A model generated the notes under the pieces. It was not told where the DNA came from. It saw only the letters and a program-made list of their open reading frames with translations, and ran no database searches. This document shows, one piece after another, positions 8,665-36,176 of a stretch of DNA of 36,176 nucleotides; the stretch's first letter is position 1; every line of letters starts with the position of its first letter. The translations under genes and the position numbers were made by a program. This DNA comes from Clostridiales bacterium (GTDB lineage: Bacteria; Bacillota; Peptococcia; DRI-13; UBA5745): assembly GCA_009777025.1 (NCBI GenBank), contig WRMS01000003.1, forward strand, positions 1 through 36,176, written 5' to 3'.

Positions 8665-8690
8665 AGCACAATATGATCCACAAGAAATAG

Positions 8691-9125
8691 AGCGATGAAG
8701 GGGATAAAGTTCCGTACTCGGCGCTTCAGAGAGCTGTCGGATGCTGCGAGACAGCGGCCTGTACAGAACATAACTCACCCCGGAGCTTCCCGCCCGAAAG
8801 GATTGTCCGCAAAAAAGACAAGCAGCGAGTCTGTGACGCAGGATTTTTTGGTACTGGCAAGGCAAGCGACGACAGATGGGAAGGAGCATACACGATGGTA
8901 TGTGACTGAGCAGATGGAGGACGCGGACGCAGCCAGGAGCAAAAAAGACAAGTCAGAGTAGGGGGGACGGTGATCCCACCGTTATCAAAGGACCAGCATT
9001 ACCTGAGCCTATCAGACGATGCCGGATAAGAGGGCGGCGAAGACCCGCCAAAGAGAGTGGTACCGCGGAAGTTGAGCTTTCGTCTCTCACTGTTTTACCT
9101 GACAGTGAAGGACGAAGGCTTTTTC
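8691..9125 (+). promoter_or_regulatory. T-box riboswitch, Leu (CUC) specifier
   Basis: Stem I has the K-turn GCGATGAAGGGG...CCCCGGAGC, an AGAGA box and a GCTG loop, with specifier CTC at 8774-8776. AGTA and CCGTTA elements follow, then T-box GAGTGGTACCGCG (~9055-9067) and a terminator hairpin ending GGCTTTTT. Confidence 0.9.
8809..8952 (+). repeat. Divergent copy of the 130-bp structured element inside T-box stem II, flanked by a 14-bp direct repeat
   Basis: GCAAAAAAGACAAG at 8809-8822 and 8939-8952 (130 bp apart). The internal CAAGGC...GAAGGAG-CATAC..GTATG-TGACTGA...GACGCAG layout matches the repeats at 24.7 and 26.2 kb. Confidence 0.75.
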
Positions 9126-9287: not shown

Positions 9288-10952
9288 ATGGAAAAGCTTT
9301 GGGAAATCACCCTGGGGGATCTGCTGGACTATCAGGCGGAGCGGCATCCGGATCAGGACTGCGTCATATACAATGACAGGCCTTTCCGGACTACGTACCG
9401 GGAGTTTCGGGACAAGGTCAATTTGGTAGCCAAAGGTTTTCTAAAACTGGGCGTCAAAAAAGGGGATCACATCTCCATGTGGGGAACGAATGTACCGGAA
9501 TGGCAGCTCGCCTTATGGGCGGCTTCCAAGATTGGCGCCGTCCTGGTGACGGTCAATACCGCGTACAAAATCTTTGAGGCGGAGTACCTGCTGCGCCAGT
9601 CGGATACCCATACGCTGGTCATGACAGAAGGCTTCAAGGACAGCGACTATGTGGCGATCATGCAGGAGTTGGTACCGGAGCTGGAAGGCGCAAGCCCGGG
9701 CGAATGGGAAAGCGATGTGCTGCCCTGCCTGAAGAACATCCTCTTATGCGGCGGCAAGGAGCTGTCCGGTATGCGCAACTGGGAATCGCTTTACGAACTC
9801 GGAAAAGAAATCAGCGACGAGACGCTGGCGGAGGCGCAGAAAGCCTGTCATTTCCACGACGTGGTGAATATGCAATACACATCCGGTACGACAGGCTTCC
9901 CGAAGGGCGTCATGCTGACGCACCTGAACATTTTAAATAACGGTTTATCCATCGGCGACTGTATGAAATTCTCGACGGCGGATAGATTGTGCCTGACTGT
10001 TCCCCTGTTTCATTGCTTCGGTTTGGTGCTGGCAACCATGGCGGCGGTCACCCACGCTTCGACGATGTGTATCGTCGAAGCCTTCAGCCCTGCGGCTGTG
10101 CTGAAAACCATCCATGAAGAAAAATGTACTGCCTTTCACGGCGTTCCCACAATGTTTATCGCGATGATGGACCACCCGGACTTTGCCAGGACGGATTTTT
10201 CCCAAATGCGGACCGGTATCATGGCCGGTTCTCCCTGCCCGGTCAAAGTCATGCGGCAGGTGGTGGATCAGATGAATATGTCAGAAATTACTATTGTCTA
10301 TGGGCTGACAGAGTCTTCTCCCGGCTGTACACAGACCACTACGGAAGATTCCCTGGAATTGCGGGTTTCTACGGTGGGGCGCAGTCTGCCCTTCGTCGAG
10401 ACAAAAGTTGTAGACCCGGATACGGGGGAGGAATGCATACCCGGCGTTCCCGGTGAATTTATGGCCAGGGGATATAATATAATGAAAGGCTATTATAAAA
10501 TGCCGGAAGCTACGGCTGCCGCGATTACGGAAGATGGTTGGCTTCACTCCGGCGATCTGGCGACGGTGGACGAAAACGGGTATTATAAAATTACAGGCCG
10601 TATTAAGGATATGATCATCCGGGGGGGCGAAAACATCTATCCAAAGGAGATCGAGGAATGCTACTATACTCATCCAGACATTCAGGATGTACAGGTGATC
10701 GGCATCCCCAGCGAAGCGTATGGAGAGGAAGTTATGGCTTATGTCATACTGAAGCCGGGCATAAGCATGACAGAGGACGAAGCCAGGGAATTCGTACGGA
10801 CGCGGATCGCCCGTCATAAAGTGCCGAAATACGTAGCGTTCATTGATGAATTCCCCATGACCGCCAGCGGCAAGATCCAGAAATATAAACTCCGTGATAT
10901 GGCAGTGGATATGCTCAAGTTGCATGACGCCGCCAGTATCGAGACAGCGTGA
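9288..10952 (+). CDS. AMP-forming acyl-CoA synthetase (ANL family)
   Basis: MQYTSGTTGFPKG, PLFHCFG, YGLTESSP, GWLHSGD, GRIKDMIIRGGENIYP and TASGKIQK motifs. RBS AAGAGGTG. Confidence 0.93.
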   Translation: MEKLWEITLGDLLDYQAERHPDQDCVIYNDRPFRTTYREFRDKVNLVAKGFLKLGVKKGDHISMWGTNVPEWQLALWAASKIGAVLVTVNTAYKIFEAEYLLRQSDTHTLVMTEGFKDSDYVAIMQELVPELEGASPGEWESDVLPCLKNILLCGGKELSGMRNWESLYELGKEISDETLAEAQKACHFHDVVNMQYTSGTTGFPKGVMLTHLNILNNGLSIGDCMKFSTADRLCLTVPLFHCFGLVLATMAAVTHASTMCIVEAFSPAAVLKTIHEEKCTAFHGVPTMFIAMMDHPDFARTDFSQMRTGIMAGSPCPVKVMRQVVDQMNMSEITIVYGLTESSPGCTQTTTEDSLELRVSTVGRSLPFVETKVVDPDTGEECIPGVPGEFMARGYNIMKGYYKMPEATAAAITEDGWLHSGDLATVDENGYYKITGRIKDMIIRGGENIYPKEIEECYYTHPDIQDVQVIGIPSEAYGEEVMAYVILKPGISMTEDEAREFVRTRIARHKVPKYVAFIDEFPMTASGKIQKYKLRDMAVDMLKLHDAASIETA

Positions 10953-18625: not shown

Positions 18626-18707
18626 TGCATATTCAGAAGTTGTGCATATTCAGAAGTTGTTTTTCTCAGAGAGTGTTTTTCTCAGAGAGTGTTTTTTTCA
18701 GAGAGTG
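18626..18707. repeat. Short tandem repeats (2 x 17 bp then 3 x 16 bp)
   Basis: TGCATATTCAGAAGTTG x2 followed by TTTTT(C/T)TCAGAGAGTG x3. Confidence 0.9.
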
Positions 18708-18714
18708 TTTTTTA

Positions 18715-21291: not shown

Positions 21292-21405
21292 TTGCCACTA
21301 CGATACCAAGATCCCGGGATGAAGAGCCTCGCAGTGAGGGAGTGGGAATGCCCGGGGTGCGGGACGCGCCACGACCGCGACCAAAACGCAGCGGCGAGCA
21401 TCCTG
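21292..21405 (+). mobile_element. tnpB: Remnant of IS200/IS605 TnpB (C-terminal Zn finger / RuvC-III)
   Basis: KSLAVREWECPGCGTRHDRDQNAAASIL matches the TnpB CPxCG..HDRDxNAAxNI motif. GC-rich patch within AT-rich DNA. The rest of the gene is missing. Confidence 0.8.
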
Positions 21406-24186: not shown

Positions 24187-24215
24187 TTGACAAAGCCTTA
24201 TGCGGTTGATATAAT
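24187..24215 (+). promoter_or_regulatory. Consensus sigma-A promoter of the yceD-rpmF-plsX operon
   Basis: TTGACA-17 nt-TATAAT with extended -10 TG. Confidence 0.85.
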
Positions 24216-24252
24216 GACGCTTGATGTTTTTGAGACAAGGTCGGGAATTCCT

Positions 24253-24726
24253 ATGATTGCAGAAATCGGCCGGTTAAGGGACGATCCGGGAGAGTTTACG
24301 GATTATGACTTTGTGTTTGTTCCGGCGGACAGTGGAGAAGATTGCATACTGCTTACCTCGGTTCATTTTACCGGAGCAATGACCTATGGCGGCACTGCAT
24401 TTCTGCTCAAAGGTAAATTGTCCGCCCGTGTGCAGTTGCCTTGCAGTCGCTGTTTAACGCCTGTTGAAGAAAAACTGGACATCGATTTTGATGAAGAGTT
24501 TGATGAGCAGGAGTACCCCGATGAGGATGCGGTAATCGATTTGGAAGATATTGCCTCTGAGATATGGATTACTTCGATCCCCATGCAGGTGCTATGCCGC
24601 GAGGACTGCAAAGGCTTATGTTCGCTATGTGGCAAAAATCTGAATGAAGGCGAATGTGATTGCCTCACAGAAAGCATAGATCCAAGGCTGGAGATCCTGC
24701 GGGATCTGATCAAACCGCAGGATTAA
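24253..24726 (+). CDS. yceD: DUF177/YceD 23S rRNA accumulation protein
   Basis: CSRCL, PMQVLCREDCKGLCSLCGKNLN and IDPRL. Upstream of rpmF. The start must lie downstream of the promoter. Confidence 0.9.
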   Translation: MIAEIGRLRDDPGEFTDYDFVFVPADSGEDCILLTSVHFTGAMTYGGTAFLLKGKLSARVQLPCSRCLTPVEEKLDIDFDEEFDEQEYPDEDAVIDLEDIASEIWITSIPMQVLCREDCKGLCSLCGKNLNEGECDCLTESIDPRLEILRDLIKPQD

Positions 24727-24909
24727 GGCGGACGACGCAGACAACACAGATAACGCCGTATGGCGGAATAAGAACAAGCTGTTAAGTCTGGCGAAGGAAT
24801 TATTTTGCCAGACAAGGCGTCAAGGAAGGCCGTCGAAGGAGTGTATCCAAACATACATGACTGAGGCGGACGACGCAGACAACGCCGTATGGCGGAATAA
24901 GAACAAGCC
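24726..24909 (+). repeat. Structured ~130-bp element (one full unit plus duplicated 3' end) between yceD and rpmF
   Basis: AACGCCGTATGGCGGAATAAGAACAAGC at 24752 and 24881 (129 bp apart). Homologous to 26235-26529. Confidence 0.9.
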
Positions 24910-24927
24910 AGAAAGGATTGGATTGAA

Positions 24928-25116
24928 ATGGGCGTACAACAACACCGTCACTCGAAAGCCAGGGTACGGAGGAGCCGCGCGGTGGTCATGAAAATGCAGA
25001 CCCCCAAATTCGTGGAATGCCCCAAGTGTCATGAGTTTAAGATGCCTCATCGACTCTGTCCGTCGTGCGGTTATTATAATGACCGTATCACGGTTCCGGT
25101 TAAGAACGAGGACTGA
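24928..25116 (+). CDS. rpmF: 50S ribosomal protein L32 (Zn-binding type)
   Basis: RHSKAR..RR, CPKC and HRLCPSCGYY. Synteny with yceD and plsX. Confidence 0.95.
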   Translation: MGVQQHRHSKARVRRSRAVVMKMQTPKFVECPKCHEFKMPHRLCPSCGYYNDRITVPVKNED

Positions 25117-25134
25117 CAACTAAAGGGGAAACGG

Positions 25135-26121
25135 ATGAAGATCGCTTTGGACGTCATGGGCGGCGATCGCGCGCCGGATGAAATCCTGATCGGCGCCAAG
25201 GAAGCCTTAACTTCATTGGAAGAATTAGAATTGCTACTTGTCGGGGACAGGGGAGCCATATTGCAACTCTGGCCTGAGGCGGAGTCAAATCCCAGAACCG
25301 AGATCGTGCATTGTACGGAAGTCATCGAAATGCAGGAATCTCCGGCGGCCGCATACCGCAGAAAGAAAGACGCTTCTATCACGATCGCCTCAAGACTGGT
25401 GAGGGATCAGGAAGCGGAAGCGGTGGTTTCCGCCGGAAGTACAGGCGCTCAACTGGTGGCGGGCTTATTTGAGCTTGGACGCATGGAAGGCGTTGCCCGT
25501 CCGGCGATTGCCACATGTATACCGACGCTGCGAGGGCCGAGAGTGATGTTGGACGTCGGCGCGAATACGGACTCCTCTACGGAGAATCTCCGGCAATTCA
25601 GCTGGTTGGGAAAGATTTACTGCGAGATTGCGCTGGGCATTCGAAATCCAAGAGTCTACTTATTGAGTAACGGCACAGAGCAAGAAAAAGGAAACGAGTT
25701 GACGGTCAATACCTATCAGGTTCTGATGGCGGAAGAAGGCTTGGGTTTCTGTGGTAGCATTGAAGGCAGAGACTTGTTCAACGGAGAAGCGGACGTCATC
25801 GTTACGGATGGTTTTGCCGGCAATGTTGCGCTTAAGACCATGGAAGGAACTGCAGAAGCGCTGTTTACGATGATGAAAGAAGCATTTCGGAAGAGTGCGC
25901 GCAGTAAGCTTGGCGCCTTCCTGCTCATGCCGGCGCTGAAGAAAGTCAAGAACAGTCTGGACTATGAGGAAATCGGCGGCGCCCCTTTGCTTGGCGTCAG
26001 AGGACTCAGCGTAGTATGTCACGGCAGTTCCGGCGCAAAAGCGATTTGCGCGGCGCTGATCAAGACAGCCCAATGGATCGAATCCGGGCTGCAGGAGAAA
26101 CTGGCCGCCAATAAATTTTAA
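25135..26121 (+). CDS. plsX: Phosphate acyltransferase PlsX
   Basis: IALDVMGGDRAP, SAGSTGA, LDVGAN, VTDGFAGN, GGAPLLG and CHGSS. Confidence 0.96.
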   Translation: MKIALDVMGGDRAPDEILIGAKEALTSLEELELLLVGDRGAILQLWPEAESNPRTEIVHCTEVIEMQESPAAAYRRKKDASITIASRLVRDQEAEAVVSAGSTGAQLVAGLFELGRMEGVARPAIATCIPTLRGPRVMLDVGANTDSSTENLRQFSWLGKIYCEIALGIRNPRVYLLSNGTEQEKGNELTVNTYQVLMAEEGLGFCGSIEGRDLFNGEADVIVTDGFAGNVALKTMEGTAEALFTMMKEAFRKSARSKLGAFLLMPALKKVKNSLDYEEIGGAPLLGVRGLSVVCHGSSGAKAICAALIKTAQWIESGLQEKLAANKF

Positions 26122-26161
26122 TGAAATAATCGGATTCCGGTCAAAAACAAGCCGGAAAGTA

Positions 26162-26190
26162 TTGACCGATGCATAGCAACTTGTTATTCT
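26162..26190 (+). promoter_or_regulatory. Putative internal sigma-A promoter upstream of the repeats and acpP
   Basis: TTGACC-17 nt-TATTCT with extended -10 TG. Confidence 0.55.
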
Positions 26191-26234
26191 GAATTGAAGC
26201 AAATGCAAAACGATGACACACCGTATGGTGTAAA

Positions 26235-26529
26235 GCAGACAACGCCGTATGGCGGAAAAAGAGCAAGCCGTTTAAGTTTGGCGAAGAAGTTTTTTCGCCA
26301 GACAAGGCGTCAAGGAAGGTCGGTGAAGGAGTGTATTCAGACATACATGACTGAACCGAACGACGCAGACAACGCCGTATGGCGGAAAAAGAGCAAGCCG
26401 TTTAAGTTTGGCGAAGAAGTTTTTTCGCCAGACAAGGCGTCAAGGAAGGTCGGTGAAGGAGTGTATCCAGACATACATGACTGAACCGAACGACGCAGAC
26501 AACGCCGTATGGCGGAAAAAGAGCAAGCC
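26235..26529 (+). repeat. Head-to-tail tandem of the 130-bp structured element (2 units plus 35 bp); Clostridiales-1-RNA-like
   Basis: GCAGACAACGCCGTATGGCGGAAAAAGAGCAAGCC at 26235, 26365 and 26495. The two units differ by one base (tattcag vs tatccag, in the apical loop). Confidence 0.93.
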
Positions 26530-26544
26530 AAAGGGGGTGGCGAT

Positions 26545-26775
26545 GTGAGCTTATCTGACCAAATCAAATCTATTTTGTCCGCCCATTTAAGCGTTGAGCC
26601 GGATGATTTGACTGATGGCACGAGTTTTGACGATCTGAACGCGGACTCCTTGGATGTGGTGGAAATTATTATGGCGCTGGAAGAGGAATTTGACATTGAG
26701 ATTCCTGATGAGGACGCCGAAAAAATACGTACAGTCGGAGACGTCACGGAATATATCAAAGAGCGCATCAACTAG
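26545..26775 (+). CDS. acpP: Acyl carrier protein
   Basis: [35 protein letters not shown] start after AGGGGGTG. Confidence 0.96.
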
Positions 26776-35002: not shown

Positions 35003-36176
35003 ATGACAAGAAAAATCTTAGCCGTATTTGTTTTAGCAGCCATGATACTCACCGGTATGCCCATGACGGCATGGGCGGGCGGTGTGCAGACAGGGACGAA
35101 TACCGAAATCAATGTCTACGGTTCTGTTATAGAGGGACCCGACAGGCCTGTGCTTGTGCAGCCGATCGGTAACCTGGACGGAAATGGCGATGGCGCGGAA
35201 TTTAACCTGACGATTATCTCACAGAGTGGCTTTGCCGCAGGGGATGAGATATACGTCGCCTCCAGACGGTGTCTTGTGGATTATTTCTATTATTGGGATG
35301 GGCAGGGGAACTGGATTCCTTTTGGCAACGCGCCTGGCGACACGATCGGCAATCCCGGGGAGATGCAGCAAACGGACAGTACGTATGCCCTGCAGATCAC
35401 CTATGGCGATATGCTTCGTCCGGTTGGCAGCAGCGAAACGGTAGCGACAGCGAGAATTAAAGTGGTTTCCGTCGCTGCCGGAGTTTCGCAGATCGTCTTT
35501 GGCAGGGACGCGGCGGATACAGCCACCTATGCCGGGGGTGTGATACCGTTTGACGGGCTTAGCCAAATCATTGGACAAAGAAGTTACCCGGCGGAATATG
35601 CCGCTTCCTTAGGCGGCGGCGTACAGACGGGGACGAATCCCAAAGTCAATGTCTATGGCTCCGTTGTTGAGGGACCCGATAGCGCTGCACCCGTGCAATT
35701 TATTTACAGCTTAGACGGAAATGGCGACGGCGAGGAATTTGATCTGGCAATCCTCTCCGAGAGTGGTTTTGCCGCGGGGGATGAGATATACGTCGCCTCC
35801 AGCCGATATGCAGTCGATTATTTTTTTTATCAGGACGCGCAGGGACGCTGGATCCCTTTTGGTAACGCGCCCGGCGACGAGATTCTCCATCTTAGCAAAA
35901 TGCAGCAAGCAAACAATTCTCATGCTTTGCAGATCACCTATGGCGACATGCTCCGTCCGGTTGATGGCAGCGATACGGTAGCGACAGCGAGAATTAAAGT
36001 GGTTTCCGTCGCAGCCGGGACTTCCCAGATCGTCTTTGGCGCGGACGCGGCGGATACCGCCTCCTATGCCATGGGTGTGACGCCGATTGACGGATTAATC
36101 AGAATTATTGGAGTCAGAAGATATCCGGCCGAATATACTTTTTCATTGGGCGGCGTGCAGACGGGGACGAATACCA
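35003..36176 (+). CDS. Secreted/surface protein with ~178-aa tandem repeats (3'-truncated by window edge; not in the ORF track)
   Basis: RBS GGAGGAGGGAG and signal peptide MTRKILAVFVLAAMILTGMPMTAWA. No stop codon up to the window end. GGVQTGTN recurs with Val codons at 35084, 35621 and 36155. Confidence 0.9.
   Translation, partial: MTRKILAVFVLAAMILTGMPMTAWAGGVQTGTNTEINVYGSVIEGPDRPVLVQPIGNLDGNGDGAEFNLTIISQSGFAAGDEIYVASRRCLVDYFYYWDGQGNWIPFGNAPGDTIGNPGEMQQTDSTYALQITYGDMLRPVGSSETVATARIKVVSVAAGVSQIVFGRDAADTATYAGGVIPFDGLSQIIGQRSYPAEYAASLGGGVQTGTNPKVNVYGSVVEGPDSAAPVQFIYSLDGNGDGEEFDLAILSESGFAAGDEIYVASSRYAVDYFFYQDAQGRWIPFGNAPGDEILHLSKMQQANNSHALQITYGDMLRPVDGSDTVATARIKVVSVAAGTSQIVFGADAADTASYAMGVTPIDGLIRIIGVRRYPAEYTFSLGGVQTGTNT

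Follow-up and report, generated by a model that had tools for sequence, protein, structure and literature searches.

A candidate small insertion element with a conserved, strand-specific core in leaders and operon spacers of a Clostridiales bacterium

We analyzed a 36,176-nt stretch of DNA (contig WRMS01000003.1, hereafter the window) from a Clostridiales bacterium represented by a metagenome-assembled genome (MAG; G000, the source genome, 170 contigs, 85% complete), in which a hairpin-forming element of about 130 nt recurs as four units: one in the spacer between yceD and rpmF, a tandem pair in the 5' untranslated region (UTR) of acpP and one diverged unit in a T-box leader. The original prediction, made from the sequence of the window, had placed four such units at three loci, and they are confirmed here, those at 24.8 and 26.3 kb by both a repeat search and blastn. 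The repeat search returned a 130-nt family (26235-26364, 26365-26494 at 99% and 24745-24874 at 68% ungapped) together with a 46-nt family of five copies, spaced at 129, 1360, 130 and 130; by blastn, the two units at 26.3 kb share 99.2% identity over 131 nt and differ at one base, and the unit at 24.8 kb is 88-89% identical to both. The nearest named records for the PlsX protein of the window come from uncultured Clostridiales/Clostridia MAGs (75% and 71% identity), the next standing at 55% or less.

Between yceD (24187-24726) and rpmF, the gene for ribosomal protein L32 (24928-25116), a 5'-truncated leading unit (24728-24779) starts directly after the yceD stop codon and is followed by a full type-1 unit, a rod hairpin (24780-24912), the 3' end of which runs into the Shine-Dalgarno (SD) sequence of rpmF. 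At 24731-24779, the leading unit duplicates the 3' arm of the unit that follows it (44 of 50 nt, 88%, with a 9-nt insert). Past the next gene, plsX (25135-26121), lie a promoter-like site (TTGACC-17-TATTCT with a TG, 26162-26190) and, just 5' of the acpP array, a small hairpin (ACACC-GUAU-GGUGU, 26213-26232), the GUAU loop of which is also the loop of a small hairpin in the 3' arm of the element. The array is headed by a 35-nt duplicate of the 3' arm (26235-26269, 35 of 35 nt by blastn and 38 of 38 in the survey of family duplicates) and comprises two type-1 units—unit a (26269-26398), recognized by repeats, fold, blastn and covariance model, and unit b (26399-26528), which ends at the SD sequence of acpP (GTG start at 26545). 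All these features are on the plus strand. Of the duplicate lengths originally given, the 35 bp at 26.3 kb is exact, and the duplicate at 24.8 kb turned out to be longer than the proposed 28 bp or so.

The third locus is a T-box leader (8686-9090, plus strand; cmscan, RF00230, 80.6 bits, E 8e-18, full model span), where a type-2 unit (8806-8960, plus strand, with its core at 8847-8943) interrupts the apical loop of Stem II as an insertion of 155 nt. On account of this insertion the leader scores below the Rfam gathering score of 93, and in a search of this copy against Rfam only the host T-box matched. The unit has a short leading duplicate of its own 3' end (17 of 18 nt, at about 8807-8824) and belongs to a diverged subtype whose closest relative, at 80.6% identity over 124 nt, is a type-2 copy upstream of flgD on contig C35 of the same genome. 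Downstream of the leader lies a gene for an AMP-binding enzyme (acyl/aryl-CoA ligase-like, 9288-10952), an unusual T-box target. A second T-box, in the congener G001 (locus L052), bears the element at the same structural spot, the loop of Stem II. In keeping with the placement proposed for them within leaders and spacers, each of the four window units runs in the same sense as the genes around it (YceD, L32, PlsX, the acyl carrier protein and the T-box gene).

Elsewhere in the source genome, further copies were identified with a covariance model built from seven of its units (R1), used with blastn. A tandem pair preceded by a partial unit lies between rplE and rpsN, where the contig ends inside the array. 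A copy of a third subtype (C99:6598-6746; L176:1478-1626), which has a terminal direct repeat of 43 nt, runs antisense to the operon in the rplF-rplR spacer of 317 nt and is kept at that site in three genomes of two genera. Tandems resembling the 26.3-kb pair were also seen on C99, in genome G007 and, with four units, at metagenome locus L214. Moreover, two elements of the source genome (C58:12464-12589 and C11:17800-17923) and one of G001 (L045:2047-2172) combine the same arms with a different core—GAUGAGG ... CUGUGGUAU ... ACCGAAG—and the G001 copy had no Rfam match at E <= 10.

The units show the marks of a conserved fold. Their fold z-scores were -4.96 and -5.87, with none of 200 shuffles equally stable; compensatory change was found at 16 of the 36 predicted pairs among the seven units of the source genome, and the stem covariations listed in the original prediction are present in the sequence. 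For 93 distinct sequences from elsewhere, in an alignment (A5) that was fitted to the model and is biased towards structure for that reason, pairing reached 86.7% of cells against 60.6% in shuffles (0 of 500 shuffles attained it), with two-sided change in 23 of 24 pairs. The pair that closes the apical hairpin, G.U, is kept in 90 of 92 of these cores. Furthermore, G.U is commoner than A.C (137 against 56), and the modelled strand is the better folder in all 47 copies from the family and in 81 of the 82 from metagenomes: the capacity to fold is built into one strand alone. The core itself spans about 95 nt and runs from P1 through CAAGGC, P2, P3 and GA(R)GGAG to the hairpin closed by the G.U pair, returning on its 3' side through UGAC(Y)GA, P3', P2', AACGCAG and P1', with variable stem arms on either side. 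A coding interpretation, suggested by an open reading frame (ORF) that begins in the 3' strand of the core, was rejected by eye in view of the period (130 or 129 nt), of a different frame at rpmF and rpsN, and of copies that adjoin tRNAs or sit inside a T-box.

The element is absent from Rfam 15 in every stretch scanned. No family reached its gathering score in the whole window, and at E <= 10 the region 24600-26650 gave only RT-17 (19.2 bits, E 1.7), HTH-XRE and sR44, all of them at chance level, the RT-17 match being treated as such. Similarly, a type-4 copy, seven viral loci and 14 metagenome loci had no match in Rfam 15, its self-cleaving ribozymes and riboswitches included. The likeness to the Clostridiales-1 RNA, another orphan structured motif from Clostridia that the original prediction had named, is unsupported, since the Rfam model of that RNA matched neither at gathering nor at E <= 10. 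Self-cleaving ribozymes carried by mobile elements and phages (hammerhead, twister, hatchet and pistol) are patchily spread over phyla and phages, occur in tandem copies and between the genes of operons, and keep conserved loop nucleotides between covarying stems; our element shares each of these traits but differs in that no Rfam ribozyme family matches it. Resemblances to the hammerhead, the hairpin ribozyme, group II intron domain V, the K-turn, the integron attC site and the CsrA site were considered as well and dropped, because their defining features did not fit and no Rfam match was found. Word searches of the literature brought up no account of the core and, in print, only the inverted ends of one of its branches (in a table of PMC4596501). 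Two stretches that contain the core were also compared by blastn with named phages and plasmids, and neither had a match.

To place the copies in an evolutionary frame, we compared the 11 genomes of the family as defined by GTDB, in which the relatives are all MAGs (80-100% complete), so that repeats and mobile genes may be missing from them. Model R1 found 44, 31, 17, 13, 12, 9, 5, 3, 1, 0 and 0 copies per genome, with the highest numbers in G001 (44 copies, 83% complete), G007 (31) and G008 (17) and both zero-copy genomes in a single genus. The two loci of type-1 units in the window are largely vacant in the nearer relatives: the yceD-rpmF spacer is a plain stretch of about 30 nt in three of four, the fourth having a decayed copy of another subtype, and the acpP 5' UTR is empty in all four, with the promoter-like site at 26162-26190 retained as an identical sequence. 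Conversely, all 12 filled sites of G001 that could be matched by synteny are short, element-free spacers in the source genome; for a filled ffh-rpsP site in G002, the flanks were not found in the source assembly (about 85% complete). At rpmC-rpsQ, a full element in G003 corresponds to a lone 3' arm in the source genome, which looks like a collapse through recombination between direct repeats. From these empty sites, at 12 positions here and at both window loci in relatives, we conclude that the copies are insertions whose gain and loss among relatives takes place in the DNA itself; orthologous empty sites, the lack of which would have spoken against the original prediction, do exist. The element is thus small, non-coding and multi-copy, with presence and absence at orthologous sites, as befits a transposable element of the miniature inverted-repeat kind (MITE).

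The core extends well beyond this family. Within the class, a second family has it in 11 genomes, almost all of them of one genus, and of 150 other genomes taken as a sample of the phylum, six have it. Among the matches listed for a pattern that describes its apical part were 15 viral contigs and more than 119 metagenome stretches; R1 matched the core at eight sites in seven of the 15 viral contigs, and a second covariance model (R2), built from 40 diverse cores, gave 96 matches in 78 of 80 metagenome loci, over a GC content of 0.30-0.70. One metagenome locus (L189) bears copies of the family type. In phages, a gene for a major head protein follows the core immediately on two contigs (L147, L137), and a third (L144) has the core between the tail sheath and a tail protein; no more than short stems flank it in these leaders. 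In metagenomes, the stop codon of a convergent gene lies 45 nt or less from the 3' end in 31 of 96 copies, and a co-oriented start follows only 14 of 96; the convergent genes, among them those for S46 peptidase, DnaK, ValRS, GH20 and glycogen phosphorylase, are unrelated, and clustering of 735 neighboring ORFs revealed no protein that recurs in more than three of about 85 loci.

In one branch, the core is associated with an element of recognizable type. Inverted ends (GAGA(C/A)TGTTGCA...TGCAACAGTCTC) are present in eight of nine related loci, flanked by 5-bp target duplications that are perfect in five (ATTTA, TATAT, CAATT, TATCC and AAGAA) and match at four of five positions in three, and one complete element measures 173 bp. 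The same inverted ends are listed for ISPg4, an insertion sequence (IS) of the IS5 family, and for MITE464/PgRS of Porphyromonas gingivalis in Table 2 of PMC4596501. By these sequence features, the carrier of this core in one lineage is a true DDE-type MITE; in Clostridia, the core sits between different arms. With the IS5-type MITEs of P. gingivalis (MITE464/PgRS and BrickBuilt, treated in that paper), the Bacteroidota-like branch of the core shares ends and short target duplications, and the likeness rests on the ends, not on the MITE464 sequence; by contrast, type-2 and related family copies end in GCAGGAUUUUU... and ...AAAAAGACAAG, with type 1 differing in detail, and no target duplication was found at the copies in the window. 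Two further cases are worth recording. In genome G107, two cores (L168 and L170) sit inside a repeat of about 290 bp that is 96.6% identical between two contigs, with no transposase-like ORF nearby. In genus g38 of the second family (L157-L160), clostridial arms (GCAGGAUUUUU ... AAAAAGACAAG) enclose another core (GACGCGUAC ... GUACGCGAG), and these elements sit near the 3' ends of genes rather than before start codons.

The position of the copies within the family was assessed for 55 of the roughly 135 matches found by R1, taken from nine genomes, with genes called by a simple ORF rule. Clostridial copies are mostly in the sense of transcription, with their 3' end at an SD sequence and start codon or at the 5' end of a tRNA: in 24 of the 55 copies, an ORF of like orientation that has an SD sequence starts within 25 nt past the 3' end, against 0 of 55 in the mirrored orientation, and the 5' end of a tRNA lies 0-7 nt from three copies. 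One more copy abuts the 3' end of a convergent tRNA, one lies in a ribosomal RNA leader, between the promoter and the 16S rRNA gene, and two occupy the Stem II loops of different T-boxes. Divergent arrays in G001 stand back to back, each facing its own gene, which indicates that orientation follows transcription and not replication. The 18 downstream genes that were typed—FloA, a GlmU-like nucleotidyltransferase, NrdD, IMPDH, FliK (twice), PGI, RsgA, Mfd, NUDIX, L20, L14, rubredoxin, a cytidylyltransferase-like (CoaD-type) protein, SpoU, TatD, XseB and a flavoprotein—are functionally unrelated, with no shared function found among them. This agrees with the original view that the element is no regulator of one pathway; no single gene family or pathway, as a riboswitch or regulon would have, emerged among neighbors and downstream genes.

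A further hallmark is terminal redundancy. It was confirmed here and is seen again in unrelated lineages, in every case in the form of a leading unit that is truncated at its 5' end. About 26 of the 55 family copies have an upstream copy of their own 3' part, ranging from some 18 nt to nearly a full unit and often perfect (31/31, 35/35, 38/38 and 93/93), with truncation points that vary from 13 to 103 in unit coordinates. The claim that a duplicate precedes every locus therefore holds in the source genome, for all six loci of types 1-3, and fails for the family at large. At the C35 (flgD) locus, the duplicate consists of a repeat of the 5' part of the unit and a short repeat of its 3' end. In metagenomes, 18 of 73 copies with enough flank have an upstream copy of the 3' part; a downstream duplicate appears only where a further unit or part follows (eight of the 73), and lone downstream partials were absent from the 73 metagenome matches and, by eye, from the flanks of family copies. 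The four-unit array of L214, with a period of 147 nt, likewise opens with a truncated unit. At the rplF-rplR site, the duplicate and the true 3' arm share lineage-specific changes, implying that the two evolve in concert. Recombination between direct repeats explains this concerted evolution, not the polarity of the arrays, which is what a circle or concatemer model predicts.

The units are non-coding, and their mobilizing enzyme is not in the window, as originally stated. Across the family genomes, none of the candidate enzymes profiled follows the element: the reverse transcriptase (RT) domain RVT_1 does not track copy number and is absent from the assemblies of G001, G002, G007 and G008; PF01797 (Y1_Tnp) occurs in five of the 11 genomes and was not found in G000, G001 (44 copies), G003 or G007 (31); TnpB/TnpA showed no tracking; and Y2_Tnp had no match in any of the 11, the control genomes being equally silent. 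A role of an RT or HUH enzyme is not borne out, as RVT_1, Y1_Tnp and TnpB fail to track the copies. Accompaniment by TnpA/TnpB, as for an IS200/IS605-derived element with a guide RNA scaffold, was thus not seen among the family genomes; nor was an RT nearby or tracking the copies, as for a DRT2-like system or retroelement, in these genomes or the roughly 85 loci, where neighbors formed no RT gene cluster. The arms of the window family are complementary. A search for a parent IS with the same ends yielded no longer element and no recurrent transposase beside copies; a pattern for the 5' end, aimed at an autonomous element, gave 38 matches against one control match (five genomes), and two extra matches in the source genome, inside ORFs, were put down to chance. 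Separately, the window has a short match to PF07282, the TnpB/Cas12f-type zinc ribbon (21334-21402, 30.1 bits), within an open frame of 101 amino acids that looks like an IS605-type remnant. Two other repeats of the window are an intergenic run of 16-nt units (TCAGAGAGTGTTTTTC-like), three to four of them head to tail (18650-18712), and repeats of 534-537 nt (75-93% identity) in a frame that runs off the window end (35077-36175), which probably encode repeated protein domains.

Drawing on these observations, we read the units as copies of a small, non-coding, non-autonomous MITE/REPIN-like insertion element that carries a strand-specific structured module, an interpretation to which we assign a probability of about 0.5. 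The transcript of such an element would fold on itself into the rod and so let the flanking RNA—the Stem II loop of a T-box, tRNA leaders, spacers—go on working, in which way selection might keep the copies in sense orientation; an A-rich tail after the rod would leave the SD sequence free. The direct repeats of the 3' arm could allow units to multiply in tandem, to stay alike or to collapse to a lone 3' arm by recombination. The core would be an RNA module that travels as a passenger and has its own partner, kept on carriers with unlike ends and in phage leaders. Its occurrence on unrelated carriers, on one strand and with invariant loop nucleotides argues for a functional single-stranded module, most simply RNA, which is unlike a transposase site.

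Several points weigh against this reading. The dispersed copies are of old date—those of G001 share a median identity of 67%, with nearest neighbors at 68-89%, and orthologous copies in close species are 98-99% identical—and recent movement was not seen in these comparisons; slow turnover of a functional element would look alike. The rule that arrays open with a 5'-truncated unit is unexplained by cut-and-paste transposition. Comparison of filled with empty sites revealed no target duplication or defined inverted termini for the clostridial copies, and neither RVT_1 nor Y1_Tnp nor TnpB tracks copy number. Moreover, the strong sense bias, the fit to SD sequences and the position before phage head and tail genes would equally suit an RNA useful to the host, and the antisense copy of the rplF-rplR spacer is conserved across genera.

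The explanation that survives best next to the insertion-element reading, and which we regard as possible if rather unlikely, takes the core for a cis-acting RNA that serves host or phage and is merely spread by its carriers. It would be a processing, stabilizing, translation-enhancing or antitermination signal just upstream of genes and stable RNAs; either the rod and the A-rich tail left free behind it or a 5' end defined by processing would increase the output of the downstream cistron. The sense bias with SD abutment (24/55 against 0/55) fits this well, as do the placements before the phage head genes of L147 and L137 and between the tail genes of L144, the rRNA operon leaders and spacers, the tRNA neighbors and the retention of copies at orthologous sites across genera. 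So does the invariance of loop nucleotides, GGAG among them, and of the closing G.U pair over GC contents of 0.30-0.70, which suggests a universal partner. Yet presence at a given gene is not conserved between congeners, and many downstream genes are quite ordinary (TatD, NUDIX, SpoU, XseB). In metagenomes, moreover, copies abut a convergent stop codon (31/96) more than they precede a co-oriented start (14/96), and the insertion into Stem II of a T-box and the antisense copy in the spc operon are hard to fit with one expression function.

We consider it unlikely that the three-loop core represents a new RNA class, one that acts by itself or binds some machinery, and that its clostridial copies arise, in addition, from unit-length circles or multimers by rolling-circle copying. 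The core would then either cleave or process itself or dock a universal component (the ribosome or an RNase, for example), promoter-less elements and phage late genes would carry it in order to ride inside host transcripts, and rolling-circle copying would make arrays always begin with a 5'-truncated unit.

Improbable, too, if compatible with the observations, is a replicon model along the lines of the original prediction, which had the element integrate at sites matching its own end. Here an RNA or single-stranded DNA of unit-length circles or multimers, copied by rolling-circle (reverse) transcription, inserts with a fixed 3' end and a variable 5' end to leave head-to-tail copies of more than unit length. 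Arrays in several unrelated subfamilies always open with a 5'-truncated unit and close with a full one, and the spread of truncation points (13 to 103) is of the kind expected. Promoter-less retroelements leave sense-strand copies within strongly transcribed host units, and the copies of our element lie in the sense strand of such units. There is also a precedent in bacteria, DRT2, for which rolling-circle reverse transcription of an RNA template of about 120 nt is described in PMC11100668 and PMC12039810. Against the model stand the absence of RVT_1 from the highest-copy genomes searched (G001 with 44 copies, G007 with 31 and G008 with 17) and of any RT or HUH gene that recurs beside copies, the lack of a leading duplicate in about half of the family copies and the sister branch, which has the inverted ends and 5-bp target duplications of a DDE-type MITE and moves as one; in addition, the concerted evolution of duplicate and 3' arm at an old site can be explained by direct-repeat recombination with no circle.

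Finally, a ligand- or protein-responsive switch, in which the 5' strand of the outer stem pairs with either the upstream duplicate (or, in type 1, the neighboring A segment) or the true 3' arm and thereby changes the state of the SD-proximal tail, is very improbable: type-1 units do have two near-isoenergetic folds (a hairpin between the A segment and the 5' arm, B, being the minimum-free-energy structure in one, the long rod in the other), the duplicate follows changes of the 3' arm lineage by lineage and the conserved internal loops may resemble aptamer cores, but there is no gene theme, copies lie beside tRNAs, in rRNA leaders and antisense to genes, half of them have no competitor strand, and the duplicate includes loop segments with nothing to pair with.

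Among known systems, the insertion-element reading finds parallels in several families of small repeats. Correia (NEMIS), ERIC and MIRU elements are small repeats co-transcribed with their neighbors in intercistronic positions, MIRU being in part tandem and Correia RNA being processed; they resemble our element in size and placement, but their sequences are unrelated, and they have neither the three-loop core nor the leading 5'-truncated unit. The REPIN/REP (repetitive extragenic palindromic) elements and their RAYT transposases, in the accounts drawn on here (PMC3116915 and PMC3337134), are short, non-coding, multi-copy extragenic hairpins of about 100 nt, with stems kept by compensating changes, vertical inheritance and long persistence, as in our case. 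The present element differs in that no Y1 (RAYT-type) gene tracks its copies, it is not a doublet of two short REPs, its internal loops are conserved across phyla, and it shows a strong sense bias with abutment to start sites.

For annotation, the insertions matter in two ways: one of them drives a genuine T-box under the Rfam threshold, and another lengthens the acpP 5' UTR by about 290 nt. More broadly, dispersed hairpin repeats are common, but here the core is conserved in sequence and fold across clostridial, Bacteroidota-like and phage settings, over GC contents of 0.30-0.70, and a module that persists on carriers whose ends are unrelated would have its own function. Such a module may explain how a small element survives in essential, highly transcribed units—operons for ribosomal proteins, tRNAs and rRNAs, or indeed a loop within a riboswitch-like leader.

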